Shown here: positions 5,584 through 42,560 of the stretch, one piece after another
Layout of the letters: each line of letters starts with the position of its first letter
Position numbering within the stretch: the first letter of the stretch is position 1
From: Candidatus Uhrbacteria bacterium
GTDB lineage: Bacteria; Patescibacteriota; Patescibacteriia; UBA9934; CAZDDW01
DNA: 43,676 nt
Assembly (NCBI GenBank): GCA_043811105.1
Contig: JBDRNK010000087.1
Location: forward strand, 1 to 43,676
Reading direction: 5' to 3'
The notes under the pieces: model-generated
What the model was told of the DNA's origin: nothing
Database searches by the model: none
The model's input: only the letters and a program-made list of their open reading frames with translations
Translations under genes and position numbers: made by a program

Positions 5584-5651
<68 letters not shown>

Positions 5652-6132: not shown

Positions 6133-6173
<41 letters not shown>

Positions 6174-7220: not shown

Positions 7221-7256
7221 AACAGCAGAGAATGTCGAAATCAGATCCACAACATT

Positions 7257-17201: not shown

Positions 17202-17205
17202 AAAA

Positions 17206-17240
17206 GGCGGGAGCTCTATGCTCCCGCCATTTATTTTTTT
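17206..17240. terminator. bidirectional intrinsic terminator
   Basis: ggcgggagc-tctat-gctcccgcc hairpin with an A-run before and a T-run after. Confidence 0.7.
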
Positions 17241-30141: not shown

Positions 30142-31182
30142 ATGGATCGACGAGAAGTGAGACCAATGGCGGAAGTTTGCGAACGTTCGTTTGCTGAGCG
30201 ATTATTGGAAGTTTGGAAAAAAATGCATCCGGAAGTGGTAAATGTTTCTGTTGAACAGCAGGAACAGATGCGGAATCAGGTTGAACAGCGCGAAAACGTG
30301 ATTCGTGATCAAGAGGTACTCGAGGTTTTAAATGAATATGGAATCGATACTTCAAAAATTATCGAAGATGCAGATGGAAATTATCGAATCACGGTAAATA
30401 ATCATTTTAGTCAAAAACGACTCCCTGCTGGTTATGGGTATAAAGGCGGAGCAGCCAGATCGCTTCTTTTGCGAAGTTTGGGAATCGATCCGGCTTATCA
30501 GCCCCGTGATGTTGATCTGATTCGGTTTTCTGAAGAAGAACCGGAACCAGGGATGGATGACTATTTGGCACAAGAATATTCACCTGAAGATTTTTCCGCT
30601 GTTATTGAAGGGCAAGGCCGAGATTCAGTAGAAAAAATGAAAGATGTCGATCGATATTTACAAACTCGTGACTTTACTTTAAATGAATTATACGCGACCG
30701 ATGACGAGGTTGTTGCCACGCGTGAATGTCTTTTAGATAGTGTCCGACGGATCATTCATTTAACGGAATACGAATATAATATGTTCCCTGACCGAATCGG
30801 TTCAAAGATGCTGGCTAAAGCGGTTTTTCTTTATGCCGAAGCGATTGAACGTTGGGGTGAGGCAGAGATTACTCATGATTTGGCATATGAGTATCAATTC
30901 GTTCCACCTTTTTATTTGGCCGTACATCTTGATAAGGCTTTTGAAAGAGGGCCTGAAGTTGCCAAAAGATATGTACAAGAATTAATGAAACGAGAGCAAC
31001 TTCCAGATGACATAATAACTCCAGAAGACGCAGCTGATTATTTGCTGTCATTAATTCGCGATAAAAATTTTTATTATCGTCATGCCCCGATTGGACAATT
31101 TGAAATCGAGGAAGAGTGGATGGAACAATATGATCAGCAACCCAGGTTTCGTGGTCACGGCCGATCAAGGGGGGAAAAATGA
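30142..31182 (+). CDS. nucleotidyltransferase-fold-like protein (hypothetical)
   Basis: YKGGAARSLLLRSLGIDPAYQPRDVDLIRF resembles the GG..R...D.D NTase signature. A possible frameshifted C-terminus continues to 31285. Confidence 0.5.
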   Translation: MDRREVRPMAEVCERSFAERLLEVWKKMHPEVVNVSVEQQEQMRNQVEQRENVIRDQEVLEVLNEYGIDTSKIIEDADGNYRITVNNHFSQKRLPAGYGYKGGAARSLLLRSLGIDPAYQPRDVDLIRFSEEEPEPGMDDYLAQEYSPEDFSAVIEGQGRDSVEKMKDVDRYLQTRDFTLNELYATDDEVVATRECLLDSVRRIIHLTEYEYNMFPDRIGSKMLAKAVFLYAEAIERWGEAEITHDLAYEYQFVPPFYLAVHLDKAFERGPEVAKRYVQELMKREQLPDDIITPEDAADYLLSLIRDKNFYYRHAPIGQFEIEEEWMEQYDQQPRFRGHGRSRGEK

Positions 31183-31310
31183 ACACTTCGGCGGCTTCAC
31201 TTTTAGCAAGGAGCATAACTGGGGGTATGATAATGAGGGGGAGGCAAGGGAACTAGGTATTAAAGATATTCAGAATTTTTTGTAAGATTTGACCAAGTTA
31301 AGTCAAAATT

Positions 31311-31335
31311 AAGCCCTGATTTTGGGCTTATTTTA
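31311..31335 (+). terminator. intrinsic terminator
   Basis: aagccc-tgatttt-gggctt followed by attttag. Confidence 0.5.
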
Positions 31336-31359
31336 GTAAATAGTGTTGTTTGTCAGGTC

Positions 31360-31388
31360 TTGACAAAACTATATTTTGGTGCTATACT
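31360..31388 (+). promoter_or_regulatory. strong sigma70-type promoter for the downstream ncRNA
   Basis: TTGACA (31360-31365), 17-nt spacer, TATACT (31383-31388). Confidence 0.6.
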
Positions 31389-31394
31389 AGTAAA

Positions 31395-31878
31395 AGATGA
31401 TTCAAAAATAATCTTGTGAGAGAGCCCTGGCCGGGGATAAGGCAAAGAGTAGAGAGTAGAAAGTAGAAGGTAGAAAGGAATAAGCTTATATAAGCTCCTT
31501 TCTACTCTCTACTATCTACTTTCTACCCAAAACGGATGTGTAGATCTCTTTCCGAGGTAAACAGGTCTGTTTATTTTTTTCACTCAGAAACCTGGGGGGA
31601 GAGTCCCCCTTCGCTCCTGAAGGAGCTACGGGGGATAGATAAACCGTTACCAGTAGGGCTTATGCCTGAGAGGTGCGGTGAGCTTAACAGGCTTAATCAG
31701 ACCAGGCTTAGGCTTGCTCTATAGTCATAGTTAAGCTCACGAGCTTATATCTGCTGCTTGCAGCGTTCACTAAGTTCACATCACTCCCAGATTTCTGAGT
31801 GAAAACTCAGCTTAAGGCCCTGTAATATTCTAGTAAACTAGATATAGGACAAAGGTGGTTCGAATCCACTCGGGGCCA
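31395..31878 (+). ncRNA. unclassified ~480-nt structured RNA with a tRNA-like 3' end (tmRNA-like, not confirmed)
   Basis: Own promoter and no credible ORF. Long-range pairs: cactcagaaa (31580) with tttctgagtg (31793); gtgagcttaac (31676) with gttaagctcac (31730). 3' end: GGAC-aaa-ggtgg-TTCGAAT-ccact-cggggcc-A. A candidate 5' acceptor strand ggccctg lies at 31816. No G3:U70. Confidence 0.45.
31447..31527 (+). repeat. REP-like long hairpin R4 (GTAGA-repeat arms) inserted in the ncRNA
   Basis: gagtagagagtagaaagtagaaggtagaaagga ... tcctttctactctctactatctactttctac. A second copy lies at 42555-42630. Confidence 0.75.
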
Positions 31879-31955
31879 GCAAAGAAAATACATCACCAGC
31901 GTTGTTGCTGGTGGTGAAGATCTATAAAAACATGTATTGCTGAAGGAGATGTTTG

Positions 31956-33290
31956 ATGACAGCGACACCGGGTTACGCAAGCGCTCTGGGAGCAGCGCCG
32001 CATTCGACGGCGATGTTCAACCTGTTGACCTTCAACCAGGTCGTGGCCACCCACGGCGGAACAGAGGATTGGATCGAGGCCTGCAAGGCGATTGGCTTCG
32101 ACGAGATGCCACCGCTGGCCGGGCGTGAGGTCCCCAAGGGCCTCTGTCGGGTCTGTGGTCCGAGGGTCGACGTCGAGCAGATCGCTGACGGCGAAGGTCT
32201 GTGGCAGGACGGTGAGTTGCCCGACCTGATCGACGCCGCAGACGAGTACCTGCTCGATCACGGCTACGACATCAACGGCAACCTGATCGACGACCTGGAC
32301 GACGACGAGGACGACGACGAGTTCGACCAGGACCTGGAAGTCCAGGAGAGGTTCGAACTGGCCGAGTTGAAGTCTGCGGAAGATCATCTGCGGACGATCG
32401 CCTATAACGACTTCGGTCACGGTGAGGTGACCTGCTGGAAGGCGTATTATCGCACCCAGTATCGGCCGAGCGTCATCGCCGCACAGTCCAAGGCGCAAGT
32501 GGCCAAGCAGTGGTCGTTTGACGTGCCCTATGGCTGGTACGGCATGTTCGATCGAGACGAGATCGAGCGACCCGAGACCGACGGTCTCGAAGATGTCGAA
32601 GCCTGGATGGCCTGGCACGAAGCAGGTCTGCCCTTCGACGTCCTGTTCGAGCAGGAGATGCTCGAGTTCAACGAGCCCTTCGTTGACGTGTCCGATCCGG
32701 ACTTCGACCATGACTGGGACTGGCACTACCGTGACCGGTCCATGGCCTGGGAGGATTTCGACGAGTACGATGATGACGACGATGATCTGGACGACTGGGA
32801 TCGCATGGACGACGACTGGGGTGATCCCTACGCCGACGGCCTCAACGATGAGTGGTCGATCGACGACAACTCCTGGGAGGACAATGATCCTTACGGCTTC
32901 TGGGACGAGGAAGACGGCTGGAACGAGTACGACATCCGTCGCTCCTGGGGTTTTGGCAAAGGCAGTGGTCGTGAACAGCTTTCACTGGAGTACTTCCGGC
33001 AGAAGCACCCTCGGGTTGAGGATCTCCAGGAAGAGTTCGAGCTGGAGGAGATCAGGGTCAGGGTTCGTGAGAGCCACGACTCGTATCGCCTCTGGCAGGA
33101 AGAGTACGGGAAAGATAACCAGGCCTGGAATAGCTGGAAGCGCTATCGGTGTGCACAACGCTGGCCAGTGGTTCACTCGGTTCCATGGGGTGAGGCTACT
33201 CGACATTTGGCCGCAATCCCAATCAGTCTGGAAGACGACTTCCAGGATCTGCTTCTCGAGGATCTGATGGATCTCGAGGACGCCGCCTAG
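31956..33290 (+). CDS. highly acidic Asp/Glu/Trp-rich protein (hypothetical)
   Basis: 444 aa. gaaggag SD 7 nt before ATG 31956. Runs such as DDLDDDEDDDEFD and DDDDDDLDDWDRMDDDWGDPY. Confidence 0.65.
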   Translation: MTATPGYASALGAAPHSTAMFNLLTFNQVVATHGGTEDWIEACKAIGFDEMPPLAGREVPKGLCRVCGPRVDVEQIADGEGLWQDGELPDLIDAADEYLLDHGYDINGNLIDDLDDDEDDDEFDQDLEVQERFELAELKSAEDHLRTIAYNDFGHGEVTCWKAYYRTQYRPSVIAAQSKAQVAKQWSFDVPYGWYGMFDRDEIERPETDGLEDVEAWMAWHEAGLPFDVLFEQEMLEFNEPFVDVSDPDFDHDWDWHYRDRSMAWEDFDEYDDDDDDLDDWDRMDDDWGDPYADGLNDEWSIDDNSWEDNDPYGFWDEEDGWNEYDIRRSWGFGKGSGREQLSLEYFRQKHPRVEDLQEEFELEEIRVRVRESHDSYRLWQEEYGKDNQAWNSWKRYRCAQRWPVVHSVPWGEATRHLAAIPISLEDDFQDLLLEDLMDLEDAA

Positions 33291-33310
33291 TTCATTCAAC
33301 TCAACAAAGT

Positions 33311-33438
33311 CCAGCAGTCCTTGCTGGCACGTGCCTCGAACACTGTTCGAGGCCTCCACCCTGTACCAGACGTCTCTAACGAGCCGTCGGTACAGGGCCC
33401 TACCAGAGTTTCTGAAGTAATTCAGAAACTCTGGTGGG
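33311..33438 (+). repeat. island junction J1: hairpins Ha, Hb, Hc and a short inverted-core element
   Basis: Ha 33311-33327, Hb 33333-33353, Hc 33359-33397 (ccctgTAcc/ggTAcaggg variant). ccctaccagagtttctgaa-gtaa-ttcagaaactctggtggg at 33398-33438. Confidence 0.75.
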
Positions 33439-33479
33439 AGTAGTTTCCAGATTTTTAAAATGTCCAACAAGGAGGATTC

Positions 33480-34364
33480 ATGGGCAACATTCGTTTCTTT
33501 ATCTGTTCCAACCCGGACACCCTCAAGGAGTGTCTTGAGGGAAATCCTTCAGCCACAGTCGAGGCTGAGTATGGCAACCGTGTGGTCGAAGGGTCGCTGT
33601 TGACTCTGGCCCATCATGGGCTACGGTCGAACAACCCGGCGCCTTGTCTGGCCGAGAACGGCTGTGGTCAGGGGGTCGACCTGGTCGGCTTGAGCCATTT
33701 CGACCTGGACACCCTGGGTGGCTGCATGGCCATCCTGGGCAACAAGTCCGAGGCTGATGGCTTCTGGAACCTGGCTGCGTTCGTGGACGTCAATGGCGCC
33801 CACAAGCTTGGTCAGTCCAAGGCCAGTGTCGAGGACGTCGTCCGGCTCTACGCCTTCTGGGCCTGGAGCAAGGATCACCGGCTGTTCGCCCCACGGGGTG
33901 GTGCGGTACTCGACGTGACCACGGAGATCAAGGCAGCTGCGGCTGCGATCATGGCTATCCTGAACGGTGACCATGATCTGATCGAGGCTGGGATGGAGTT
34001 CCAGGGTGAGGAGACTCACCTGAACAGCTCCTCTTTCGTCGAATTGGTCGACGGGGTGGTCGTCCGGATTGTTCGGAATCAGACGGACTTCGTCAACCAC
34101 CTCTACGTCACTCCTGACGGTCAGGTGGCCCAGGCAGTGGTTTCGCTCAACCTGGGACATGGCGGCTGCACGATCAGTCTGGCTGATCCGGTCGAGGGTG
34201 TGTCCTGTCGGGAGATCGTCCAGTCCGTCTGGACGGACACCGACGACGATGGCAATCTTTTGGCTGGTGGCCATGATGGTATCGCTGGTTCGCCACGCGG
34301 CCAACGGCTCGGTCTGGATGACCTGGTCGCCGTTCGCGACGTCATGGTCAAGGCCCTGACCTGA
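33480..34364 (+). CDS. divergent DHH/DHHA1-like phosphoesterase (tentative)
   Basis: SHFDLDTLGG (motif I-like DxD), NGDHDL (DHH-like), AGGHDGIAGSPRG (GGGH..AAG-like). aaggagg SD. Confidence 0.6.
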   Translation: MGNIRFFICSNPDTLKECLEGNPSATVEAEYGNRVVEGSLLTLAHHGLRSNNPAPCLAENGCGQGVDLVGLSHFDLDTLGGCMAILGNKSEADGFWNLAAFVDVNGAHKLGQSKASVEDVVRLYAFWAWSKDHRLFAPRGGAVLDVTTEIKAAAAAIMAILNGDHDLIEAGMEFQGEETHLNSSSFVELVDGVVVRIVRNQTDFVNHLYVTPDGQVAQAVVSLNLGHGGCTISLADPVEGVSCREIVQSVWTDTDDDGNLLAGGHDGIAGSPRGQRLGLDDLVAVRDVMVKALT

Positions 34365-34376
34365 TCCTTTCAAAGC

Positions 34377-34580
34377 CCAGCAGTCCTTGCTGGCACGTGC
34401 CTCGAACCCTGTTCGAGGCTCCACCAGAGTTATTCAAACAAGTATCATGTCTCAAGTAACCCACCTTCGCCAAGGCTTCGGTGGGCAGGCAAGTATCAAG
34501 TTAGGAAGATATCGCGATATTTTCCATCCTTGATCCTTGAACCTTGTTACTTGAAACTTTCCTTGGATACCCCTGGTGGG
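34377..34580 (+). repeat. island junction J2: Ha, Hb, empty Hc site, inverted-core element invaded by host repeats
   Basis: Ha 34377-34393, Hb 34399-34419. ctccacc|agag has no Hc. ccaccagag (34421) pairs with ccctggtggg (34571). The interior 34440-34557 consists of host-type caagt-arm and ccaccttcgccaaggcttcggtgggcagg repeats. Confidence 0.7.
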
Positions 34581-34602
34581 ATACAATCTAAACGGAGGAA
34601 AG

Positions 34603-34749
34603 ATGAGCAAGATCCTGTCTGTCTGTGTCGAAATCGTGATCTACTGCATGGCATTTGCCATGTATCAGATCTACGAGCGCCGCTACTCGTGCGGCAACCT
34701 GAACAACACCTTGGGCAAGGTCGCCAGCTCCACAGGCTACCACCCGTAG
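34603..34749 (+). CDS. 48-aa small hydrophobic protein
   Basis: ggagga SD 5 nt upstream. MSKILSVCVEIVIYCMAFAMYQIYERRYSCGNLNNTLGKVASSTGYHP. Below the ORF-track cutoff. Confidence 0.5.
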   Translation: MSKILSVCVEIVIYCMAFAMYQIYERRYSCGNLNNTLGKVASSTGYHP

Positions 34750-34767
34750 GAATTGAAAGGAGCCGAC

Positions 34768-35037
34768 GTGAGTATTCGTCAACAGTTGGTTTGCTTCGGG
34801 ATCGTGGCAAAAGTCATGTGCACGATCGTTGGTCTTTGCATCTTGGGTACAGTGCTGCTCGTAGCCAACGTGGCTGCCGTTGCTATCTGGATCGGATGTC
34901 TGCTGGATTGGGACTTTCCGATCTTGTACGCCTTTGTCCCAGCTTTGGTAATGTTTCTGGACGTCTGTGTCAGTCTACTGATTTCCAGGCTCTGGCCAGG
35001 GTTCAGTGACTGGCTTTGCCTCGGGTTCAGGAAGTAG
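34768..35037 (+). CDS. small membrane protein (two or three TM)
   Basis: aaggag SD 5 nt before GTG 34768. Hydrophobic throughout. Confidence 0.55.
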   Translation: MSIRQQLVCFGIVAKVMCTIVGLCILGTVLLVANVAAVAIWIGCLLDWDFPILYAFVPALVMFLDVCVSLLISRLWPGFSDWLCLGFRK

Positions 35038-35214
35038 AAGAAGTATATTGCGTGGGCTGGTTCTTACCAGCTCTAACTGCGAACGCCGCGTATGTTCGCA
35101 GACCCTCTCTAGTTTAGAAATAGCGATCCTAATGAAATTCGAATGGCATTCGAATGATCCGAATATTTGTAAATTAAAGAGGGGGAAACAATTTTCAAAC
35201 AACAAGGAGTGGTC

Positions 35215-35298
35215 ATGACCATCGATTTGATCAGAATCTACAACCGCGTCTATTACCGGATTTTCCGGATTCGACGCTGGTTTCGATCCGCGAAGTAA
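35215..35298 (+). CDS. 27-aa highly basic peptide (speculative)
   Basis: aaggag SD 4 nt before the ATG. MTIDLIRIYNRVYYRIFRIRRWFRSAK. Confidence 0.25.
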   Translation: MTIDLIRIYNRVYYRIFRIRRWFRSAK

Positions 35299-35336
35299 AC
35301 CAAGCCGTTAACGCAGAAGTAGAGGAGGAAGTTGAA

Positions 35337-35699
35337 ATGAGCACGAAAATGCTGATTGCTGCCGTGGTGGTGGTGTTGAACTTCTGGCTGGTGTTCGGCT
35401 GTGTCATGCCAGTGCCGGAGATGGTCTCTGACATCTGTGCCATGATGCTTCGAGCCGAAGCCTGGACGATCGGGCTGTGCCTGGTTTTCAGCGTCTTGTT
35501 CTTCTACGATCAGATGGTTCTGGTCGTGGAGCAACACAAGCTTCGCTGTGGTCAGGTCTGTCGGATCTGGTCCAGAGTGACGGTGCCAGACCCCAAGGAG
35601 CTGGGTGTTCGCGAAATGGTTTGCGAGGCCTGGATCATCAGCATGGAAAAGGTTGTACACGCACAACAGCGCGTGCACCGTTTCCTACAAAACGTGTAG
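35337..35699 (+). CDS. hypothetical membrane protein
   Basis: gaggagga SD. 120 aa with N-terminal TM helices. Confidence 0.55.
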   Translation: MSTKMLIAAVVVVLNFWLVFGCVMPVPEMVSDICAMMLRAEAWTIGLCLVFSVLFFYDQMVLVVEQHKLRCGQVCRIWSRVTVPDPKELGVREMVCEAWIISMEKVVHAQQRVHRFLQNV

Positions 35700-35743
35700 C
35701 TTACACGTACGACACCGGAGTCGCACTCGCGATTCCAAATTTA

Positions 35744-35890
35744 CCCTGAACCAGACATCTCTAACGAGCCGTCGGTTCAGGGCCCCACCTGAGATGTTAA
35801 GAGATTTTTCTAACGGGGTTTATCCCCGGTCTGACTGTCAGACGCCAGATGAACTGGCTAAGAAAAATTTCTTAAATCCTCTGGTAGGGG
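35744..35890 (+). repeat. island junction J3: Hc plus element II (copy 1)
   Basis: Hc 35744-35782. Element II 35783-35890: closing stem ttaagagatttttct/agaaaaatttcttaa around three small hairpins (gggg..cccc, tctga..tcaga, gccag..ctggc). Confidence 0.75.
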
Positions 35891-35898
35891 ATCAAAAA

Positions 35899-35925
35899 AC
35901 CGCCATGTAGGCGGTGGTTCGAATC
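35899..35925. terminator. hairpin between convergent genes, overlapping a T-arm-like 13-mer
   Basis: aaaaaaccgcc-atgt-aggcggt. ggtggttcgaatc (35913-35925) is identical to 31854-31866. Confidence 0.45.
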
Positions 35926-35936
35926 TTTACAAATAT

Positions 35937-36287
35937 TTATCGTAACTCTAGCTGGACATGTTGAGCTATCTGTTGTAACTGTGATTCGAGTCGTTCATAT
36001 TTAGATTGCAAAGCAATAAGTTCAGTCTCGAGTTTATTGTGTAAACTAATGAAACCGTCGACTTGGGTAATGATTTCAGATTTTGCTTCATTTACTACTT
36101 CCTTAATTTCAGTACCCAGCTCACCTTTTAAGTTAGAGATTTCAAAAGAGAGATCATCCTTCGAGGTCATGTGAGATTCTAACTCATGCAGATCATCCTT
36201 TGAAGCCGCATTATCTTTAATAAATTCAACAGTATCAAGTACTTGTTGTAGAGCGTTATCTTGATCCATACAAATGTAATTTAACAT
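35937..36287 (-). CDS. coiled-coil protein, AT-rich (paralog of 39116-39613)
   Basis: Start chosen at MLNYICMDQ by homology with the paralog. Shared C-terminus LETEL.ALQSKYERLESQLQQIAQH.QLELR. The line 36001-36060 hand-counts to 35% GC. Confidence 0.6.
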   Translation of the reverse strand: MLNYICMDQDNALQQVLDTVEFIKDNAASKDDLHELESHMTSKDDLSFEISNLKGELGTEIKEVVNEAKSEIITQVDGFISLHNKLETELIALQSKYERLESQLQQIAQHVQLELR

Positions 36288-36310
36288 ATTGTCGAGTAGA
36301 TGACAATGTT

Positions 36311-36409
36311 CTACCAGAGATGAATATTTCTTACCCAACTTGTTGGGGTTTTAAATCAAGACGGGAATAAATTCCCTGAGAAGTATTAAGAAATATCGTT
36401 TCTGGTGGG
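36311..36409 (+). repeat. island element I, copy 1 (structured leader candidate)
   Basis: ctaccagag...tctggtggg bracket. Inner hairpins cccaa-cttg-ttggg and gggaat-aa-attccc. 33 nt upstream of ATG 36443. Confidence 0.7.
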
Positions 36410-36442
36410 AGAAAAATTACATTCAATAAGAAAGGAAACGAG

Positions 36443-36700
36443 ATGACTGAGAAACAGCAGGAAAAGATGCTGACCGAGCTGAACTGGCTCAAGCGCTGGT
36501 TGGTTCGCCAGCCGCGCTGGTTGCAGATGGGCTTCTTGCTCATCTCAGGCCTTTTGCTCGGAGCTGACCTGATTCTGGTCGACCCGATTCCGCTGATCGA
36601 TGAAGCCTTGCTCATCTGGTCCACTTGGACCGGGTTCAAGGTGGCGGTCAACGATGGTCCACGGTATCGGCGTTTGGAAGCGCCGCAGGAGGAGTCATGA
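36443..36700 (+). CDS. small membrane protein, DUF1232/YkvA-like (tentative); paralog of 39855-40115
   Basis: 85 aa. ADLILVDPIPLIDEALLIWS resembles the DUF1232 D.IPD.IP..G..DD motif. Confidence 0.6.
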   Translation: MTEKQQEKMLTELNWLKRWLVRQPRWLQMGFLLISGLLLGADLILVDPIPLIDEALLIWSTWTGFKVAVNDGPRYRRLEAPQEES

Positions 36701-36939
36701 AGTATTGGCTCTTCGAACAGATTCCGCGGGTCTGGGTAACGGTCGTTCTGATCGCTGTCTGGTCAATTCTGGCCACGGCCACGCTAGCTGCCTGGCCCTT
36801 ACCCACCAGTTATGATGTCTGGGTCGGGCGTGGTCTTGGCTGTATACTCCTGACCTCCATTCCGGCCTTGTTGACCGAGCCGATTATTTTCGCACTCTGG
36901 TGGCCAGGCAAGCCCTTCGAGCTTCGGCCACGAAGCTGA
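36697..36939 (+). CDS. small membrane protein
   Basis: ATGA overlap with the upstream stop. aggaggag SD. 80 aa. The C-terminal KPFELRPRS is encoded by the shared repeat. Confidence 0.55.
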   Translation: MKYWLFEQIPRVWVTVVLIAVWSILATATLAAWPLPTSYDVWVGRGLGCILLTSIPALLTEPIIFALWWPGKPFELRPRS

Positions 36940-37119
36940 ACCTTCCCCACTCGCCCGGAACCATTCACGGTTCCGGGCCCTACCCTGAACCAGACGTCTC
37001 TAGCGAGTCGTCGGTTCAGGGCCCTACCAGAGATGAATATTTCTTACCCAACTTGTTGGGGTCAAGACGGGAACAAGTTCCCTGAGAAATATTATTTCTG
37101 GTGGGGGACGAAGTTTTTT
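36911..37119 (+). repeat. island junction J5: He, Hf, Hc, element I (copy 2)
   Basis: He gcttcg-gcca-cgaagc 36921-36936. Hf 36954-36977. Hc 36983-37021. Element I 37024-37105. 36983-37119 is identical to 37903-38039. Confidence 0.8.
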
Positions 37120-37185
37120 ACAACACGGCTTTACAGAGCCAAGGTCCGTCGAACGGGCCGAGCAATAAAGAAAGATAGGAAAGAC

Positions 37186-37491
37186 ATGCCATATTTGCAA
37201 TTGGTACATACCACGGGTAGCGACTTCATCATGGGATGGCACGGTTTTGGTGACACATCAATGCCTGACGGTGTGAATTTGCACTGTCTGTGCGATACGG
37301 GCACCACAATCGTATTTCCAAGTCTGGTCAGTGTGGCCGGTCTTGCCCTGACCGTGAGCAACATCAAAGCTTTGCTCAAGGCTTGGTTGAACGAGCAGGA
37401 AAGCCTGCCGGTTCATGTCTGCCCGAAGTGTGGTATCGATGGTAGTTCTGACAAGGATAAGGTCTTGGCTTGGTTACAAGCCCTTCGGTAA
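37186..37491 (+). CDS. hypothetical protein
   Basis: 101 aa from ATG 37186. Contains CPKC. The upstream part of the track ORF is element I sequence. Confidence 0.45.
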   Translation: MPYLQLVHTTGSDFIMGWHGFGDTSMPDGVNLHCLCDTGTTIVFPSLVSVAGLALTVSNIKALLKAWLNEQESLPVHVCPKCGIDGSSDKDKVLAWLQALR

Positions 37492-37593
37492 TTTAACAGT
37501 CCACCAGGGAAGATGGGCTTTCGCCCAATCCTGGCGTCCTTAGTCGGACGTAGAAGATGGACCCTGTCCACTAGGGCAGGAATTCGGAAAGAT

Positions 37594-37893
37594 ATGAAGA
37601 GATTTCTGAAGACGGTATCGTCCTACACGTTCACGGCCGCAGTCTACACGGTTCTGGCAGTACTGGTCCTGGCTATCGTGATTCCGATCGTGACCTTTGT
37701 TGGTGGACATGTCTGCCTGGTCGTTTGCGCCCTGGTCTGGGAGTTTTTTCCAGCCTGGGATCTGGGAGTGATCGGTGTGATCGGCGCTGCCACCTTCATC
37801 TTCGATGCAGTATTTCTACCATTCCTGATTCCGATCTTTCTGATCGTAGCAACCTGGCTGCTCACCCCGAGCAAGAAGCGGCAATGTTGCTAA
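37594..37893 (+). CDS. small polytopic membrane protein
   Basis: 99 aa from ATG 37594 (alternative start 37513). Hydrophobic throughout and ends in CC. Confidence 0.5.
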   Translation: MKRFLKTVSSYTFTAAVYTVLAVLVLAIVIPIVTFVGGHVCLVVCALVWEFFPAWDLGVIGVIGAATFIFDAVFLPFLIPIFLIVATWLLTPSKKRQCC

Positions 37894-37902
37894 ACTCTTT
37901 CG

Positions 37903-38039
37903 CCCTGAACCAGACGTCTCTAGCGAGTCGTCGGTTCAGGGCCCTACCAGAGATGAATATTTCTTACCCAACTTGTTGGGGTCAAGACGGGAACAAGTTC
38001 CCTGAGAAATATTATTTCTGGTGGGGGACGAAGTTTTTT
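37903..38039 (+). repeat. island junction J6: Hc plus element I (copy 3)
   Basis: 137-bp perfect copy of 36983-37119. Confidence 0.85.
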
Positions 38040-38064
38040 CAAACAACAAATGAAGGAGAGAACG

Positions 38065-38469
38065 ATGTTGAATACAGAAAGAACCTTGCGCGATTTCGTC
38101 TTTCTGGTGTACCAGTTGGCAGTGAACGATAACGATCAGTTGCCGCCAACACCGTGGACCGACATCAAGATCACGCCGGCCAAGTACGCTGTTCTGCTGC
38201 GTCAGGGCTGGCAACGGGCTCAGAAGGGTCGAATGCAGATGTGTCTGCGCTTTGATCTTCCGGATGGGTCTGTGGCCTATCTCGGTAACGGTGACCCTCA
38301 GGGTCATAACAACGATATCTGGCACGGTCGGATCGAGGGTCCGATCGCCGAAAGCCTCGGCTGCCGCTGGATCGAGTTTGGTGTCATGGCCGATGCCGAA
38401 GTCGACACCAAGGGTCTGTTGGCTGCAACCAAACGTAGCCGGCCCTTCGAGCTTCGGCCACGAAGCTGA
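38065..38469 (+). CDS. hypothetical protein
   Basis: gaaggag SD 6 nt before ATG 38065. 134 aa. The C-terminal RPFELRPRS is encoded by the shared repeat. Confidence 0.55.
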   Translation: MLNTERTLRDFVFLVYQLAVNDNDQLPPTPWTDIKITPAKYAVLLRQGWQRAQKGRMQMCLRFDLPDGSVAYLGNGDPQGHNNDIWHGRIEGPIAESLGCRWIEFGVMADAEVDTKGLLAATKRSRPFELRPRS

Positions 38470-38615
38470 ACCTTCCCCACTCGCCCGGAACCATTCACGG
38501 TTCCGGGCCCTACCAGAGTTGTTCAATAATTTTTCTAACGGATCTCTGATCCGGTTCTGAATTCGAACGCCATCAGAGATGGCTAAGAAGAACTTCTGAA
38601 CATATCTGGTAGGGG
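38441..38615 (+). repeat. island junction J7: He, Hf, empty Hc site, element II variant
   Basis: 38442-38514 is identical to 36912-36984. gggccctacc|agag has no Hc. Element 38510-38615 is bracketed by ctaccagag / atctggtagggg. Confidence 0.8.
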
Positions 38616-38640
38616 ACAATTACAAACAGAGGAGGTACAA

Positions 38641-38883
38641 ATGTACCGCGTGATCATTGCGATTTTTTGGGCCATGGTGGCCTTTGGAATGTTCTGGGGT
38701 TTTGTTTTCGGCCACCTGCACGTGGTCGGATTCATCGAGTGTCTGATTCGTCAGGACTTCAGTTCGGATCCAGGTTACTTGATGAGCATCGTGGCGATCT
38801 TGACCGTACTGCTCGACATCTTTGCATTCCTCGCTTTCATACTTGGAATGCACTGCCGCATCTTTCTGTGGTGCCGCAGTTGA
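38641..38883 (+). CDS. small membrane protein
   Basis: gaggagg SD. 80 aa with two hydrophobic helices. Confidence 0.55.
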   Translation: MYRVIIAIFWAMVAFGMFWGFVFGHLHVVGFIECLIRQDFSSDPGYLMSIVAILTVLLDIFAFLAFILGMHCRIFLWCRS

Positions 38884-38890
38884 AATATTT

Positions 38891-39071
38891 CACTCGCCCG
38901 GAACCATTCACGGTTCCGGGCCCCACCCTGAACCAGACGTCTCTAACGAGTCGTCGGTTCAGGGCCCCACCTGAGATGTTAAGAGATTTTTCTAACGGGG
39001 TTTATCCCCGGTTTGTAAGTCAGACGCCAGATAAACTGGCTAAGAAAAACAGCTTAACACATCAGGTTGGG
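38891..39071 (+). repeat. island junction J8: Hf, Hc, element II (copy 2)
   Basis: Hf 38897-38920, Hc 38926-38964, element II 38965-39071 (closely similar to 35783-35890 over its first ~50 nt). Confidence 0.8.
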
Positions 39072-39115
39072 TCAATCAAAAAACCGCTTTGTCAGCAGTT
39101 TTGTTCTTAAAAGGA

Positions 39116-39613
39116 TTATCGCAGTTCCAATTGAATATGTTGAGCTATCTGTTGTAATTGCGATTCAAGACGTTCGTACTTGGATTGAAGAGCCACAAGT
39201 TCAGTTTCAAGTTTGTTGTGTAGATTGATAAAGCCATCGATTTGAGTGACTATTTCAGATTTTGCACCAGAAATTATTTGTTCAACATCGGCTTTGACTA
39301 CTGCGTTATCTTTGACAAATTCAACTGTTTCTTGCACCCCAGCCATATCCTCTCTGAGAGAACTAACGTCTGTTTTTACTCCAGACATATCTTCTTTGAG
39401 AGAACCAACGTCTGTTTTAAGAGAACCAACATCTGTTTTTACCCCAGCCATATCCTCTTTAAGGGAGCTGACATCTGTTTTAAGAGAACCAACATCTGTT
39501 CGAACTGAACCAACCGCCACTTCCAATCCTTTGATTGCTTCCCGGTTTGAGGTGGTGGTATCTAGAATTTTTTCAAGTAGTGATTGTTGATCCATACAAA
39601 AGTAATTTAACAT
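39116..39613 (-). CDS. coiled-coil protein with an internal 21-nt tandem repeat expansion (paralog of 35937-36287)
   Basis: 165 aa. Heptad-like repeats DVGSLKT/DVSSLKE/DMAGVKT. Same N- and C-termini as the paralog. Confidence 0.65.
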   Translation of the reverse strand: MLNYFCMDQQSLLEKILDTTTSNREAIKGLEVAVGSVRTDVGSLKTDVSSLKEDMAGVKTDVGSLKTDVGSLKEDMSGVKTDVSSLREDMAGVQETVEFVKDNAVVKADVEQIISGAKSEIVTQIDGFINLHNKLETELVALQSKYERLESQLQQIAQHIQLELR

Positions 39614-39636
39614 ATTGTCGAGTAGATGACAATGTT

Positions 39637-39818
39637 CTACCAGAGATTAGTATTTCTTACCCAATTTACCTGGCCGCCGAAGCTTTAGCGAAGGCGGGTT
39701 GGGGTTGTGATGGGAACGACAAACTTTAGTTTGTCAAATGACAGACTAACGTCTGTCAGTCCCTACAAGACGGGAATAAATTCCCTGAGAAGTATTAAGA
39801 AATATAATTTCTGGTGGG
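39637..39818 (+). repeat. island element I, copy 4, interrupted by host REP-like repeats
   Basis: Same ends as copy 1. About 100 nt are inserted (39668-39767), containing cctggccgccgaagctttagcgaaggcgggttgggg and tgacagactaacgtctgtcagtccctac. Confidence 0.75.
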
Positions 39819-39854
39819 AGAAAAGGTTTTACAATCAATACGAAAGGGAACAAA

Positions 39855-40115
39855 ATGACTGAGAAACAGCAAGAGCAAATGCTGACTGAGCTGAACTGGC
39901 TCAAGCGCTGGTTGATTCGTCAGCCTCGCTGGTTGCAGGTGAGCTTCTTGTTCATCTCAGCCGCGCTGTTCGGTGTCGACATGATCGCGCTCGACCCGCT
40001 GCCCTTCATCGACGAAGCCATTCTGGCCTGGTCCACCTGGACCGGGTTCAAGGTGGCGGTCAACGACGGTCCGCGGTATCGGCGCTTGGATGCACCCGAG
40101 TCCAAATCTACCTAA
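39855..40115 (+). CDS. small membrane protein, DUF1232/YkvA-like (tentative)
   Basis: 86 aa. Closely similar to the 36443-36700 product (MTEKQQE.MLTELNWLKRWL.RQPRWLQ...). Confidence 0.6.
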   Translation: MTEKQQEQMLTELNWLKRWLIRQPRWLQVSFLFISAALFGVDMIALDPLPFIDEAILAWSTWTGFKVAVNDGPRYRRLDAPESKST

Positions 40116-40141
40116 ACCTCTCAAACATCTGAGGAGAAAAA

Positions 40142-40441
40142 ATGCAGACGGTTCTGGTAATATTGATGTTGATGGCTATGATTCTGGGCGGAGTGGCTAC
40201 TGCCCTTCGTATCTGGACTAAGAGCCAATGGACTGGTCGTCTGGCACTAGCCAGCCTGGTCAGTTTGATTCTGGGAACGGCCTGGGCCATTGGTTCTGGC
40301 CACTGGGTAATGGTGATCATGGAGCCGGTGATGTGGTTCCTGACCCTGGCCAGTGTCTGGCTGTTCAGCTACAGCCTTTGGCATCTGAACAATCCGGTCA
40401 AGCTGGCCTATGCGCGGTTGCGGTTGCGACTGCACAACTGA
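40142..40441 (+). CDS. small polytopic membrane protein
   Basis: gaggag SD. 99 aa with three hydrophobic helices. Confidence 0.55.
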   Translation: MQTVLVILMLMAMILGGVATALRIWTKSQWTGRLALASLVSLILGTAWAIGSGHWVMVIMEPVMWFLTLASVWLFSYSLWHLNNPVKLAYARLRLRLHN

Positions 40442-40449
40442 ATATCTTG

Positions 40450-40608
40450 CCCCGGAACCTATCGTGGTTCCGGGGCCCTACCCTGAACCAGACGTCTCTA
40501 ACGAGCCGTCGGTTCCGGGCCCCACTTAAGCACAGCAGTTTGATGAATATCGAAACTCTCTCTCAATATTCATTAAACCAGCAATGCTGTGCTTAGGTGG
40601 GGTTTTTT
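40450..40608 (+). repeat. island junction J10 / right end: Hf variant, hybrid Hc, terminal hairpin plus T-run
   Basis: ccccggaacc-tatcgt-ggttccgggg 40450-40475. Hc with an Hf-type 3' arm at 40481-40519. cccacttaagcacagca...tgctgtgcttaggtgggg followed by TTTTTT (40603-40608). Confidence 0.7.
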
Positions 40609-40643
40609 GTTTTATCTGACTTTATGTTAAACTGGTTTCAGTT

Positions 40644-42560
40644 ATGTGTGGAATCGTTGGCTATATAGGTAAAAAACAGGCCCTGCCGATCTTAATTGAT
40701 GGGTTAAAGCGTTTGGAATACCGTGGTTATGATTCGGCTGGGGTGGCGTTGTTGGGTGAGGGGGGTTGTCAGATTATTAAGAGTCCGGGGAAGATAGTAG
40801 GATTAGAAGAGAAAGTCTCAAGTTTCAAGTCTCAAGTCTCAAGTGCTGGAATCGCTCATACTCGCTGGGCGACTCATGGGCCTCCGACTGAGGCCAATGC
40901 TCATCCGCATACTGATTGCTCTGGCAAAATTGCCTTAGTTCATAACGGAATTGTTGAGAACTATCAGGAATTGAAACAAGAATTACAGGAGAAGGGACAT
41001 CAGTTTCGTTCAGAAACGGATACTGAAGTGTTGGTGCATTTGATTGAAGATTGTTTAAATAATGTAGCGGAAGGCTTTAGCCTTCCATGTCAGCAAAATG
41101 GAACCCTCCCACCTTCGCCAAGGCTTCGGCGGGCAGGAAAGGGTTCCTCTACATTAGAAATGGCAACCAGAAAGGCATTAGAACAAGTGCGCGGCACTTA
41201 CGGTATTGCTGTAGTTTCATCTGATCATCCAGATCAAATCGTGATTGCTCGCATGGGCAGCCCGATTGTTATTGGTGTGGGCACTGATGATTTTTTTGTT
41301 GCTTCAGATGCTTCAGCTTTGTTAAGTCATACCCGCAATGTAATTTATCTTGACGATGGCGAGATGTGTGTTTTACGACCGGACGGTTATTCGATTAAGA
41401 CTTTGGGTAATCGATCAGTGGCTAAAGAACCAGAAGTTATTGAGTGGTCAGCTGAAGATGTTAAAAAAGGTGGACATCCGCATTTCATGAAAAAGGAAAT
41501 GATGGAACAGCCAAAAGTTTTGGTTGATTCTATTCGCGGTCGTTTAAAACCAAAAGATGGAAAAGCCGTGCTTGGTGGTTTAAGCGATGTTGCCGATCGT
41601 CTGCGTCAAATTGATCGACTAATTATTGTTGCCTGCGGTAGTGCCTACTATTCCGGCCTGGTCGGCGAGTATATGTTGGAAGAATATGCTGGTATTCCAG
41701 TGGAAGTAGATCTGGCTTCAGAGTTTCGTTATCGCAAACCGATTATTACAGATCGCACAGCCGTGCTTGCAGTTAGTCAATCCGGAGAAACCGCAGACAC
41801 ACTAGCAGCGATCCGTGAGGCAAAAGAAAAAGGTGCTTTAACCTTGGGAATCGTTAATACGGTTGGATCGACCATAGCTCGGGAAACCGATGCCGGTATT
41901 TACAATCATGCCGGCCCGGAAATTGGAGTGGCTTCAACTAAGGCTTTTTTATCGCAAGCAACAGTCTTTGCTTTATTAACCATGTTTCTTGGTCGACAGC
42001 GATCAATGTCAATGGTCATGGGTAAGCGTATAGCTGATGAGATTCAGATGCTTCCAGACAAGTTGCAATCAATCATTAACCAGTTTGATCAGATCTCGCT
42101 TCTGGCTCAGAAATACAAAGACATGCAAAATTGTTTGTACTTGGGACGAAAATACTGTAGTCCAATTGCTTACGAAGGAGCTTTGAAACTTAAAGAGATT
42201 TCTTATATTCACGCTGAAGGTTATGCAGCTGGAGAAATGAAACACGGTCCGATCGCTTTGATTGATTCAAACTTTGTTTCCGTTGTGCTATGTCCAAAAG
42301 ACTCGGTTTATGAAAAAACTATATCTAACATCGAAGAACTTAAGGCTCGTGGTGGTTCGATCATCGCCGTGACAACTGAAGGCAACGATTCGATTAAACA
42401 AGTCGCAGATGATATAATCTATATACCAAAAACTTTAGAAATGTTAACTCCAATTTTGGCTGTGGTTCCGTTGCAAATTTTTGCTTACGCAATTGCTACA
42501 GCTCGTGGTTATGATCCGGACATGCCCAGGAATCTGGCTAAAGCCGTGACCGTGGAGTAG
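40644..42560 (+). CDS. glmS: glutamine--fructose-6-phosphate aminotransferase
   Basis: MCGIVGYIG N-terminal nucleophile. GIAHTRWATHG. Two SIS domains. C-terminal ...AKAVTVE. Confidence 0.95.
   Translation: MCGIVGYIGKKQALPILIDGLKRLEYRGYDSAGVALLGEGGCQIIKSPGKIVGLEEKVSSFKSQVSSAGIAHTRWATHGPPTEANAHPHTDCSGKIALVHNGIVENYQELKQELQEKGHQFRSETDTEVLVHLIEDCLNNVAEGFSLPCQQNGTLPPSPRLRRAGKGSSTLEMATRKALEQVRGTYGIAVVSSDHPDQIVIARMGSPIVIGVGTDDFFVASDASALLSHTRNVIYLDDGEMCVLRPDGYSIKTLGNRSVAKEPEVIEWSAEDVKKGGHPHFMKKEMMEQPKVLVDSIRGRLKPKDGKAVLGGLSDVADRLRQIDRLIIVACGSAYYSGLVGEYMLEEYAGIPVEVDLASEFRYRKPIITDRTAVLAVSQSGETADTLAAIREAKEKGALTLGIVNTVGSTIARETDAGIYNHAGPEIGVASTKAFLSQATVFALLTMFLGRQRSMSMVMGKRIADEIQMLPDKLQSIINQFDQISLLAQKYKDMQNCLYLGRKYCSPIAYEGALKLKEISYIHAEGYAAGEMKHGPIALIDSNFVSVVLCPKDSVYEKTISNIEELKARGGSIIAVTTEGNDSIKQVADDIIYIPKTLEMLTPILAVVPLQIFAYAIATARGYDPDMPRNLAKAVTVE
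41064..41153 (+). repeat. 90-nt nested REP-like insertion (R3 inside R2), in frame within glmS
   Basis: gtagcggaaggctttagccttccat gtcagc aaaatggaaccct[cccaccttcgccaaggcttcggcgggcagg]aaagggttcc tctaca. Encodes VAEGFSLPCQQNGTLPPSPRLRRAGKGSST. Confidence 0.75.

Follow-up and report, generated by a model that had tools for sequence, protein, structure and literature searches.

DNA whose composition departs strongly from its surroundings is usually read as the product of recent horizontal transfer, and the locus described here indicates that such an island can also mark a resident, conserved expression unit. The locus was found in contig JBDRNK010000087.1 (assembly GCA_043811105.1) of a Candidatus Uhrbacteria bacterium, and the window analysed is the whole stretch of 43,676 nucleotides (nt) at positions 1 to 43,676 of this contig. 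Within the window, a block at 31880-40608, between the 3' end of a tRNA-like structure and the glmS gene, had been described in a sequence-only reading as a GC-rich island of about 8.7 kb that starts where integrative elements classically do. On balance, and with modest confidence, we regard this block as a native, long-resident, leader-driven polycistronic array, which is punctuated by RNA structures, reshuffled between repeats and held at a high GC content in a cistron-specific manner. The host is an ultra-small bacterium of the Patescibacteria or Candidate Phyla Radiation (CPR), a group that accounts for a large part of the diversity of bacteria and in which most lineage-specific genes are unexplained.

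Composition and gene content of the block

The GC content of 31881-40608 was 51.8%, compared with 41.6% for the non-rRNA host sequence, and the sliding-window GC and the tetranucleotide deviation agreed that the island is real. In 1-kb windows, the GC content was 0.54-0.60 at 31.5-35 kb and 0.39-0.45 in the flanking genes, and the tetranucleotide distance to the host was 0.45-0.71 at 31-35 kb and about 0.2 elsewhere. An abrupt change had been claimed for both borders. The claim held on the left, where the GC content of 200-nt windows rose from 0.47 at 31800 to 0.64 at 32000 and the border is therefore sharp; the right border was softer, with only a moderate change from 0.53 at 40400 to 0.41 at 40500 in windows of the same size. 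Inside, the block proved to be a mosaic that turns AT-rich twice, around 36.0 kb and at 39.0-39.7 kb, and the minus-strand coiled-coil cassettes were AT-rich (GC 0.34-0.41). Host genes had a GC content at third codon positions (GC3) of 0.29-0.45, the 14 plus-strand open reading frames (ORFs) of the block reached 0.55-0.79, and the two minus-strand genes had only 0.27-0.29.

The gene content agreed with the sequence-only reading. We counted 16 ORFs, of which 14 are on the plus strand, while the two exceptions are AT-rich coiled-coil genes on the minus strand; the lengths in order are 444, 294, 48, 94, 27, 120, 116, 85, 80, 101, 126, 139, 80, 165, 86 and 99 amino acids (aa), the 116-aa and 165-aa frames being those on the minus strand, and only two of the ORFs exceed 165 aa. 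One to three hydrophobic segments were present in nine ORFs, and a GGAGG-like Shine-Dalgarno sequence preceded most of them. No integrase, replication, capsid or defence family was found among the ORFs of the block with Pfam, PHROGs, NCBIfam and PADLOC, where the only family matches were coiled-coil noise and a weak similarity to DUF6116. In particular, PHROGs gave weak coiled-coil matches and no structural, packaging, replication or lysis family, in PADLOC only the JetC and LmuB models matched, through low-scoring coiled-coil similarity to a coiled-coil gene, and megablast found no match among 50,697 phage records. Recombinases were absent from the 43.7-kb window in Pfam scans of all ORFs of at least 110 aa, and no RAYT/TnpA or HUH/Y1 enzyme was found in the window, so the search of the rest of the contig that the sequence-only reading had proposed yielded no such enzyme.

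Conservation of the array in relatives

We ranked relatives by glmS identity and then read their contigs; five relatives span 73-86% identity. Ahead of glmS, contig P0124 (glmS 84%) contained 14 small plus-strand ORFs without Pfam matches within 10 kb, loci L006 and L007 (85%) contained 13 and 10 of the same kind, and L008 (86%) contained nine, eight of them on the plus strand. The L009 contig (76%) reaches only 1.5 kb beyond the start of glmS and breaks off where the GC content is 0.63-0.66, and L010, a 1.0-Mb chromosome (73%), had a block of 0.58-0.74 GC upstream. The arrays of the relatives were GC-rich compared with their own flanks. No empty site, with the RNA directly before glmS, was found in the five relatives at 73-86% glmS identity, and no recombinase, IntI included, was found among the genes called beside the arrays of L006, L007, L008, L009 and L010. 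The sequence-only reading had named, as an outcome that would speak against an island, relatives with the same genes at host-like composition and no empty site. The relatives do carry the same genes and show no empty site; the genes are, however, still GC-rich and not host-like.

For eight of the window's cassettes, L006/L007 and L008 carry orthologues, with 77-93% protein identity, a different order and variable presence or absence. Their synonymous divergence (dS) was 0.29-0.88, compared with the 0.83-1.10 that glmS gave between the same genomes, and the ratio of nonsynonymous to synonymous divergence (dN/dS) was 0.07-0.47. These ratios indicate that the cassettes are real genes under constraint, and the closeness of cassette dS to glmS dS indicates that the array diverged roughly together with the chromosome. 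The junction between array and glmS, including the terminator hairpin, was identical in L006 (JGI), L007 (Logan) and L008 (ENA), and the junction between the leader described below and a GC-rich gene recurred in L001 (JGI/NCBI), L002 (ENA), L027 and L010.

Apparent maintenance of GC-rich codon usage

Two island genes are shared by the window, L006 and L008, with a GC3 of 0.62-0.76 in all three genomes. Their third-position singleton changes comprised 37 from A or T to G or C (W to S) and 31 in the opposite direction (S to W), and the corresponding numbers in glmS, at a GC3 of 0.36, were 109 and 113. Relaxation of GC3 from 0.7 to 0.36 would, by our own calculation, give a ratio of S to W to W to S changes of about 4:1, and the observed S to W share (31/68) lies about 7 standard deviations from this decay expectation. 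The balanced changes therefore indicate that a GC3 of about 0.7 persists in a genome with a GC3 of 0.36. The GC-rich codon usage of the plus-strand cistrons thus appears to be at equilibrium, and such an equilibrium would call for a cistron-specific force that maintains it. Selection on the RNA or on its translation is the force that we favour.

The minus-strand coiled-coil genes have a dS of 1.2 to L008 and still show a GC3 of 0.27-0.29, which makes a locus-wide biased gene conversion unlikely. Regional GC-biased gene conversion as the sole cause was likewise rejected because the embedded minus-strand genes and the intercistronic module D stay AT-rich. High expression alone was also rejected, as the ribosomal protein and EF-P genes of L001 have a GC content of only 0.45-0.51. 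The locus offers a testable case of two codon-composition equilibria in one small genome, which bears on the debate over selection, biased gene conversion and mutation as determinants of bacterial GC content.

Promoter and leader RNA

A near-consensus sigma-70 promoter (Table 1) was found to be the best match in 31000-40800 and lies just 3' of the terminator of the previous gene; elsewhere in the array, plus-strand promoter-like matches were limited to 36300, 39626 and 39828 and scored 9/12. All 14 plus-strand ORFs follow this promoter in the same orientation. It is followed by a leader of about 480 nt, in which a 5' module gives way to a structured middle domain and this, at the 3' end, to a tRNA-like module, and the fold of 31425-31882 had a minimum free energy of -201 kcal/mol (z = -11). 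The 5' module, described by our covariance model R1, begins thirty nucleotides 3' of the promoter with the motifs GAGAGAG and AWAAGG, between which a short hairpin lies; next come a long variable hairpin (31433-31528), a hairpin with a CUCU-containing loop and a T run. To judge from its sequence, this layout looks like that of an attenuator or a small RNA.

The promoter and the R1 module are common to L010, L001/L002/L027 and L003, and the module alone was present in L011, a metagenome-assembled genome of Uhrbacteria. The R1 model recovered L010 (two copies), L011, L001/L027 and L003; the L010 copy at 20-153, which was not in the seed, scored 70.6 bits (E 1.6e-10) and lies directly ahead of the GC-rich block (GC 0.58-0.74). 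The GC jump also begins behind the R1 leader in L001/L002/L027 and L011. The L010 record (OZ246408.1), in which the leader module occurs twice (20-153 and 7076-7232), is labelled 'uncultured Gammaproteobacteria', and its glmS and neighbouring genes are CPR-like.

The leader matched no Rfam family at permissive thresholds, and neither did the leaders of L001 and L010; a permissive Rfam scan over the island and these two leaders gave only chance microRNA-like matches to hairpins. In BLAST comparisons of leader with leader, only the 5' module aligned. The 5' leader motif, used as a 20-mer, gave 14 matches in genome contigs, three of them in CPR, and the 11 non-CPR matches were discarded because, by our estimate, about 17 were expected by chance.

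The tRNA-like module and hammerhead ribozymes

The module at the 3' end of the leader has a perfect acceptor stem, in which GGCCCUG pairs with CGGGGCC, and a T arm (GGTTCGAATCC) of the form GGUGG-UUCGAAU-CCACU with a UUCGAAU loop. A hairpin with a 4-nt loop replaces the anticodon arm, and 31 nt lie between the 5' strand of the acceptor and the T arm. The module thus has the 7-bp acceptor and the UUCRANY-loop T arm of a tRNA and has neither a D arm nor a 7-nt anticodon loop; it was not called as a tRNA, since the Rfam tRNA score was 25.3 bits (gathering score 29) and ARAGORN was negative. An identity as tmRNA was rejected, because ARAGORN and Rfam (E<=1) detected none and inspection by eye showed no ALAA-like tag reading frame. 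A one-piece RNA with a long-range acceptor was also rejected, as its long-range pairs number five of seven, whereas the local 7-bp acceptor is perfect.

The second L010 leader also ends in a tRNA-like module (7434-7508), in which 16 of 16 pairs are kept and six are changed on both sides. Model R2, built for this module, matched only the copies in the window and in L010 and none further in 0.8 Mb of related loci. As the sequence-only reading had seen, the island starts right after the tRNA-like structure, and the cassette boundary lies exactly at its 3' end. The last 25 nt and 16 nt of the module match only themselves in the window with up to three mismatches. The segment 31881-31955 travels with ORF1, the first gene of the array, in L006, where it stands behind a hairpin and not behind a tRNA-like element.

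Type III hammerhead ribozymes were found upstream of the homologue of ORF2, the second gene of the array, in L003/L004/L005, L025 and L028. In L003 the ribozyme is part of the leader; in L025 and L028 it has an ORF before it and the ORF2 homologue behind it. In the three aligned hammerheads (L003, L025 and L028), 98% of the cells were paired, six pairs were compensatory and the core was invariant, with variation at N7 only, which the consensus allows. As predicted from sequence, they have the CUGANGA and GAAA core, three stems, the A15.1-U16.1 pair and C17; the Rfam Hammerhead_3 model scored them at 23.6 bits, below its gathering score of 48.5. A candidate hammerhead in module D of the window was rejected because its junction reads CAAGAC and not CUGANGA. 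Type III hammerheads occur inside bacterial operons or prophages, and the relatives' elements resemble these, lying upstream of the ORF2 homologue and, in L025 and L028, between cistrons. The window itself differs in having no hammerhead, with the tRNA-like module and long hairpins at comparable positions.

Because tRNA-like and hammerhead elements are both RNA-cleavage signals, and given the mascRNA/MALAT1 precedent, we read the module as a presumed processing signal for RNase P and RNase Z between the leader and the mRNA. In the tRNA punctuation model of mitochondria, RNase P and RNase Z create the RNA ends. Mitochondrial punctuation and MALAT1/mascRNA likewise place a tRNA-shaped, non-decoding module at the boundary of functional RNA segments; in contrast, the module of the window is bacterial, stands where a leader RNA meets a polycistronic mRNA, is present in two genomes only, and its cleavage is a prediction. 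Published accounts of MALAT1 (PMC8457004) and GUT15 (PMC6152437) provide precedents for a tRNA-like processing signal. A literature search, which as a negative is weak, found no paper on CPR hammerheads, DUF6116, the R1 leader or such arrays.

Intercistronic hairpins and recombination

Three kinds of element were found between the cistrons: GC-rich 3' hairpins (B and C), a bracket hairpin and a Shine-Dalgarno sequence. Hairpin B (CCGGAACC..GGTTCCGG) is present in four copies and hairpin C in six copies with a conserved UCUCUAACGAG loop. The bracket hairpin consists of CCYACCAGAG, a variable interior of 20-160 nt and CUCUGGURGGG, and the Shine-Dalgarno sequence follows 15-35 nt 3' of it. The hairpin motifs gave 9, 8 and 4 matches in the window, compared with 0.16, 0.53 and 0 expected; only one match lies outside the island (8819), and eight of the nine CCYACCWGAG matches are inside. 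The hairpin C pattern had no match in viral and metagenome collections. Additional copies of module D, a three-way-junction form of the bracket, are located at 37022-37107, 37942-38027 and 39635-39820. A T run was present only behind the last hairpin (40520-40603), which is the predicted terminator of the array, 40 nt before glmS.

The stems persist through compensatory changes (CCAGAG/CTCTGG, CCAAAG/CTTTGG and CCTAAG/CTTAGG), and the terminal module is conserved at L006 6254-6366 with compensatory CCAAAG/CTTTGG changes. In addition, the stems carry U.G wobbles, which are A.C mismatches on the opposite strand, so that a structure in the plus-strand transcript is favoured. The same hairpin architecture was found in L006, L008 and L009, and L010 and L001 have different repeated intercistronic hairpins. 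Intercistronic module 2 is 90-92% identical to L008:484-673 and 937-1097, and w31881-32233 is homologous to L006:135-488.

Some of the copies are recent. The sequence 36912-36984 equals 38442-38514 at 100% identity and 36983-37125 equals 37903-38045 at 99%, and recombination within the locus is therefore ongoing. The homology breakpoints among the window, L006 and L008 lie at the Shine-Dalgarno sequence, in either arm of the bracket and, where an 11-nt microhomology (CAAGCCCTTCG) is shared, at the 3' ends of ORFs. Since these breakpoints are scattered, recombination between repeats fits better than site-specific recombination.

Intercistronic stem-loops are known from operons as repetitive extragenic palindromes and bacterial interspersed mosaic elements (REP/BIME), as RNase III sites of phage T7 and as 3' inverted repeats of plastids. 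The array shares with these the GC hairpins after ORFs, the long intercistronic stems and the repetition of the stems in the genome, and its stems are plausible determinants of RNA processing or stability. The hairpins of the array differ in that they are essentially confined to one locus in the 43.7-kb window, combine conserved stem bases with hypervariable interiors and have a dedicated leader.

ORF2 is a predicted DHH/DHHA1 phosphoesterase

Profile searches of the island ORFs and structure searches with ORF2 and the 139-aa protein, of the kind proposed in the sequence-only reading, assigned a fold only to ORF2 and revealed no mobility family. The AlphaFold2 model of ORF2 had a predicted local distance difference test (pLDDT) score of 97. 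Foldseek showed that 28 of the 30 PDB matches at E<=0.001 were DHH-family proteins (NrnA, GdpP, PggH, RecJ and others) with probabilities of 0.90-1.00. The fold comparison alone succeeded: ORF2 was below the Pfam threshold, the DHH model included, and a sequence-profile search of the PDB gave no match. The residues H45-H46, D75-x-D77 and G263-G264-H265 were invariant across 41 sequences and were mapped to the catalytic DxD, DHH and GGGH motifs by eye. ORF2 shares with the phosphoesterases NrnA, GdpP and PggH the two-domain DHH-DHHA1 fold, and its invariant His-His, Asp-x-Asp and Gly-Gly-His columns may correspond to their catalytic motifs; it is only 8-17% identical to solved DHH-family structures. 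We found 839 homologues of ORF2, and every source name among the 120 listed was patescibacterial, which indicates a cellular gene. By its predicted fold, ORF2 is a conserved cellular CPR phosphoesterase and not a mobility gene.

The ORF2 homologue was above the local background GC3 at 26 of 33 distinct loci, and offsets of 0.16-0.47 were found only at four loci, where ORF2 is 50-55% identical to that of the window. In L072, L042 and L092, the plus-strand ORFs adjoining the ORF2 homologue were likewise GC3-rich. Homologues were also present on 44 IMG/VR contigs (L105-L148), many of them 100-300 kb long, and many of these look like CPR chromosomal fragments rather than viruses. Exact-protein look-ups for glmS and ORF2 gave no match.

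Proposed mechanism and points against it

We propose that the strong promoter starts the structured leader RNA of about 480 nt and that read-through transcripts would carry the 14 plus-strand cistrons, which encode the acidic protein, the DHH/DHHA1 phosphoesterase and 12 small, mostly membrane-bound orphans. Each cistron has a bracket stem-loop ahead of it and GC-rich hairpins behind it, and transcription of the array would stop at the strong terminator just before glmS. The tRNA-like module would be cut by RNase P and RNase Z; in related lineages, a type III hammerhead may provide for RNA cleavage in this upstream region. The long intercistronic stems may process or stabilise the transcript, so that the polycistronic RNA would be cut into protected single-gene units. 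The two AT-rich coiled-coil genes on the opposite strand would be separate transcription units embedded in the array. The array itself changes as its cistron units are duplicated, lost or put into a new order when intercistronic repeats recombine with each other.

Several points weigh against this reading. Thirteen of the 14 plus-strand proteins have no assignable function, and sequence is the basis for predicting that the array is transcribed as a unit, cut at the tRNA-like module and processed at its hairpins. The tRNA-like module was found in two genomes only, with a non-canonical T loop in L010, and the R1 leader was not detected before most ORF2 homologues. The large GC3 offsets are limited to the nearest ORF2 subclade, which also fits a module moving between CPR lineages. 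The dS of the island is somewhat below that of glmS, and this fits either a constraint on GC3 or later exchange between relatives. Finally, the equilibrium test comprises 217 codons and uses parsimony at a dS of about 0.5-1.

A broader proposal, which we put forward tentatively and hold to be possible but not probable, is that the array represents an undescribed CPR gene-expression platform. In it, a promoter and a leader module of about 150 nt would head stem-loop-packaged orphan cistrons with a GC3 of about 0.7, and, depending on the lineage, a tRNA-like module or a type III hammerhead would be placed within the leader or between the cistrons. If this were true, the RNA-processing unit would also be the unit of evolutionary shuffling, and GC-rich coding would be adaptive, for example as protection of the mRNAs from AU-directed RNases or because the products or RNAs are used in a GC-rich partner cell. 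The locus combines an uncatalogued leader RNA with a tRNA-like module, which may act as a processing signal, and has hammerheads upstream of the same gene in relatives; together these may form a natural system in which to study how organisms whose RNA-decay machinery is minimal cut polycistronic RNAs into stable units. The small membrane proteins may belong to the cell-surface interface of an episymbiont, and GC-based island callers would mislabel the locus.

Alternative explanations

That the genes are foreign, either through an old, unameliorated transfer or through repeated arrivals from other CPR, hosts or an unseen episome into a hotspot upstream of glmS, appears unlikely to us, but it has several observations in its favour. 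The GC3 is about twice that of the host, the gene content of the window and L010 is completely different with a GC-rich block in the same place, and the closest ORF2 homologues occur in hosts of very different GC content with a GC3 excess of 0.2-0.47. Many ORF2 homologues lie on short contigs or contig ends, and a preprint reports genomic islands to be common in Patescibacteria (bioRxiv 10.1101/2022.10.05.510940). However, no donor is visible, the source names of ORF2 are CPR-only among those listed, and the other ORFs have no relatives outside the lineage in 1.8-5.8 billion proteins. The balance between W to S and S to W changes also differs from the ratio calculated for decay, the AT-rich coiled-coil cassettes (dS 1.2) have coexisted with the GC-rich ones, and both the conserved leader and its promoter are ancient and match the host in composition. 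We consider it more doubtful still that the block is an integron-like cassette platform, in which the promoter and leader would correspond to Pc/attI, the palindromes to recombination sites, and a recombinase elsewhere would shuffle GC-rich cassettes from a CPR pool. The layout is integron-like: as in integrons and clusters of attC sites lacking integrase (CALINs), many short, same-orientation, apparently promoterless ORFs of unassigned function, many of them for membrane proteins, follow one strong promoter. The ORFs are separated by repeated imperfect palindromes, whose stem bases are conserved and whose interiors vary; from relative to relative, cassettes differ in presence and order and have been duplicated, and a few are embedded in the opposite orientation. 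Additionally, the first cassette begins exactly at the tRNA-like 3' end, and the composition is unlike that of the chromosome. Unlike integrons and CALINs, the array lacks IntI or another recombinase, both in the 43.7 kb and among the genes called beside the five arrays named above, and it lacks attC R''/R' boxes: RYYYAAC ... GTTRRRY pairs numbered two per strand, compared with 0.7 +/- 0.9 in shuffles, and were not at cassette borders. The breakpoints have no single core site, the U.G wobbles indicate a plus-strand RNA, the leader RNA is structured, and the cassettes diverge roughly with the host chromosome. In its presumed processing, by analogy, the array is closer to transcripts punctuated by tRNAs or ribozymes.

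The sequence-only reading had pointed to the classic position of an integrative element; that such an element inserted behind a tRNA-like or tmRNA-like gene, at its 3' end, and has lost its integrase is largely refuted and very improbable. The block resembles tRNA- and tmRNA-site islands in its atypical composition, its start 2-3 nt after an acceptor/T-arm structure and its many hypothetical genes, for which sequence profiles give no housekeeping annotation. It differs from them in having no integrase in the window, no flanking repeat of the tRNA-like 3' end and no empty site. The five relatives are occupied by orthologous cassettes, so that the content is vertically conserved, and the tRNA-like structure is not a tRNA or tmRNA gene but part of a leader RNA that stands ahead of GC-rich genes elsewhere in the CPR as well; ORF2, moreover, is predicted to be a conserved cellular enzyme. 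An insertion of the Tn7 or CRISPR-associated transposon (CAST) type at glmS was rejected because such elements insert downstream of glmS and the block lies upstream. The sharp composition change at 31.9 kb is the sole point in favour of an assembly chimera of a GC-rich organism with one of 42% GC. Host-like sequence lies on both sides of the block, the leader junction recurs in four other loci, and the same array-glmS junction was found in JGI, Logan and ENA assemblies; a chimera is therefore ruled out for practical purposes.

Genes and elements of the array

Table 1. Features of the locus, in window positions unless another locus is named (TM, transmembrane segment).
Feature	Position	Strand	Remarks
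Upstream host gene, 346-aa ORF	30142-31182		
Intrinsic terminator of upstream host gene	31310..31336	+	Terminator scan, sequence; marks end of preceding transcription unit
Near-consensus sigma-70 promoter	31360..31388	+	TTGACA, 17-nt spacer, TATACT, TG extension; 11/12 positions
5' leader module, model R1	31416..31585	+	Covariance model, 110 bits
Leader middle domain	31577..31805	+	Closed by 20-bp helix (31577-31596 / 31786-31805); inverted repeat I12, 95% complementary
tRNA-like module	31816..31878	+	7-bp acceptor stem, 4-bp hairpin, T arm
5' UTR hairpin of first cistron	31894..31913	+	CACCAGC..GCTGGTG, minimal bracket; sequence
ORF1, 444 aa	31956..33290	+	Very acidic (116 Asp+Glu), no TM, GC3 0.76
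Intercistronic module 1	33291..33479	+	GC hairpins 33311-33327, 33333-33353; hairpin C 33359-33398; bracket 33398-33440; Shine-Dalgarno
ORF2, 294 aa	33480..34364	+	Predicted DHH/DHHA1-fold phosphoesterase (NrnA/GdpP/PggH/RecJ-like); GC3 0.73
Intercistronic module 2	34365..34602	+	GC hairpins and long bracket CCACCAGAG ... CCCCTGGTGGG, about 34420-34582
48-aa cistron	34603-34749	+	1 TM
94-aa cistron	34753-35037	+	2 TM
27-aa cistron	35215-35298	+	Basic
120-aa cistron	35337-35699	+	2-3 TM
Hairpin C and bracket	35736..35890	+	Bracket 35783-35890
AT-rich coiled-coil gene 1	35937-36287 (unit 35899..36306)	-	GC3 0.29; terminator 35915-35899, promoter 36306-36278
Module D, three-way-junction bracket form	36309..36411	+	Folds -41 to -78 kcal/mol; repeat families D7, D13, D14
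Translationally coupled pair	36443..36939	+	85 aa (weak DUF6116 similarity, 1 TM) and 80 aa (2-3 TM)
Recently copied intercistronic block	36912..37125	+	Hairpin B (36953-36978), hairpin C, module D; repeat families D7, D10
101-aa cistron	37186-37491	+	
126-aa cistron	37513-37893	+	3 TM
139/134-aa cistron	38050/38065-38469	+	Soluble orphan
Hairpin B and long bracket	38483..38614	+	Bracket 38508-38614; inverted repeat I1
80-aa cistron	38641..38883	+	2-3 TM
Hairpin B, hairpin C, bracket	38896..39071	+	Copy of 35743-35889, 90% identical, repeat D8
AT-rich coiled-coil gene 2	39116-39613 (unit 39075..39632)	-	GC3 0.27; 21-nt internal repeats; promoter 39632-39604
Coupled pair, second copy	39855..40441	+	86-aa DUF6116 protein (E 7e-7) and 99-aa 3-TM protein
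Terminal module	40451..40615	+	Hairpin B, hairpin C, bracket-type hairpin (40520-40603, -46 kcal/mol), then TTTTTTGTTTT
glmS, host gene	40644..42560	+	Right-hand border of locus in all relatives; GC3 0.36
Type III hammerheads	L003 9595-9648; L025 2777-2826; L028 1201-1250		

ORF1 gave no family match in the profile libraries, and L006 has an ORF1-like gene of 487 aa. The small cistrons of 34603..35699 have orthologues in L006 and L008 in a different order, and the cistrons of 37186..38469 have orthologues that are 78-83% identical in both. The coupled pair is duplicated (36443..36939 and 39855-40441; repeat D2, 82% identical), and the proteins of its first copy are 81-93% identical to those of L006 and L008. 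The 86-aa DUF6116-like protein had three matches among 5.8 billion proteins, and the 139-aa protein had two true homologue clusters among 1.84 billion representatives. With so few matches for these two proteins, the array genes other than ORF2 are, to judge from the databases, lineage-restricted orphans. A Kelch/BNR propeller identity of the 139-aa orphan was judged spurious because the matches ran through one short blade-like motif only; its AlphaFold2 model was poor (pLDDT 62), and no fold match was found in the PDB. All homologues of this protein keep an F-x-LRPR tail. The unrelated ORFs that end at 36939 and 38469 share the nine terminal residues KPFELRPRS (36912-36939 and 38442-38469), because a 73-nt intercistronic repeat extends into both 3' ends.

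Coiled-coil gene 1 has an orthologue in L008. Coiled-coil gene 2 contains, at 39315-39514, tandem 21-nt (7-residue) repeats with SLKTDVG / SLKEDMAGVKTDV units, which gene 1 lacks. Both genes have sigma-70-like promoters on the minus strand (36278-36306 and 39604-39632), with the -10 box falling within the longest ORF. Translation therefore probably begins at an internal methionine within MDQ, and the mRNAs would be leaderless. A palindrome (ATTGTC..GACAAT) overlaps the start of the coiled-coil genes.

Other features of the window

The upstream 346-aa host protein had no relative in the genome-contig collection. Source names given for the homologues of glmS were mostly patescibacterial, including Candidatus Uhrbacteria. 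The GlmS protein has 638 aa, compared with 597-631 aa in the closest relatives, and an extra segment of about 25 residues lies between the glutaminase and isomerase parts.

Another GC-rich gene (15672-17201, 509 aa, GC3 0.57) encodes N-terminal TM segments and belongs to no family. It lies directly 3' of tRNA-Ala (15451-15526), has its own promoter-like and terminator sequences (15451-17240), and has neither an R1 leader nor bracket hairpins. The region 12642-13217 matches RVT_1 (E 6.6e-8), and the similarity continues out of frame in 13264-13551; 12642-13551 is thus a frameshifted reverse-transcriptase remnant of the diversity-generating retroelement, retron or group II type.

The first 2000 nt of the window, upstream of the 23S rRNA gene, have a GC content of only 30% and contain an HTH_3 regulator (98-535) and two family-less ORFs. 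Two insertions split the 23S rRNA gene, which is 4.4 kb long (1950-6366): a group I intron (5697-6016, Rfam 68.9 bits) and an AT-rich insert with a LAGLIDADG endonuclease ORF (4361-4942, Pfam E 5e-19). The rRNA genes of CPR typically bear such insertions.

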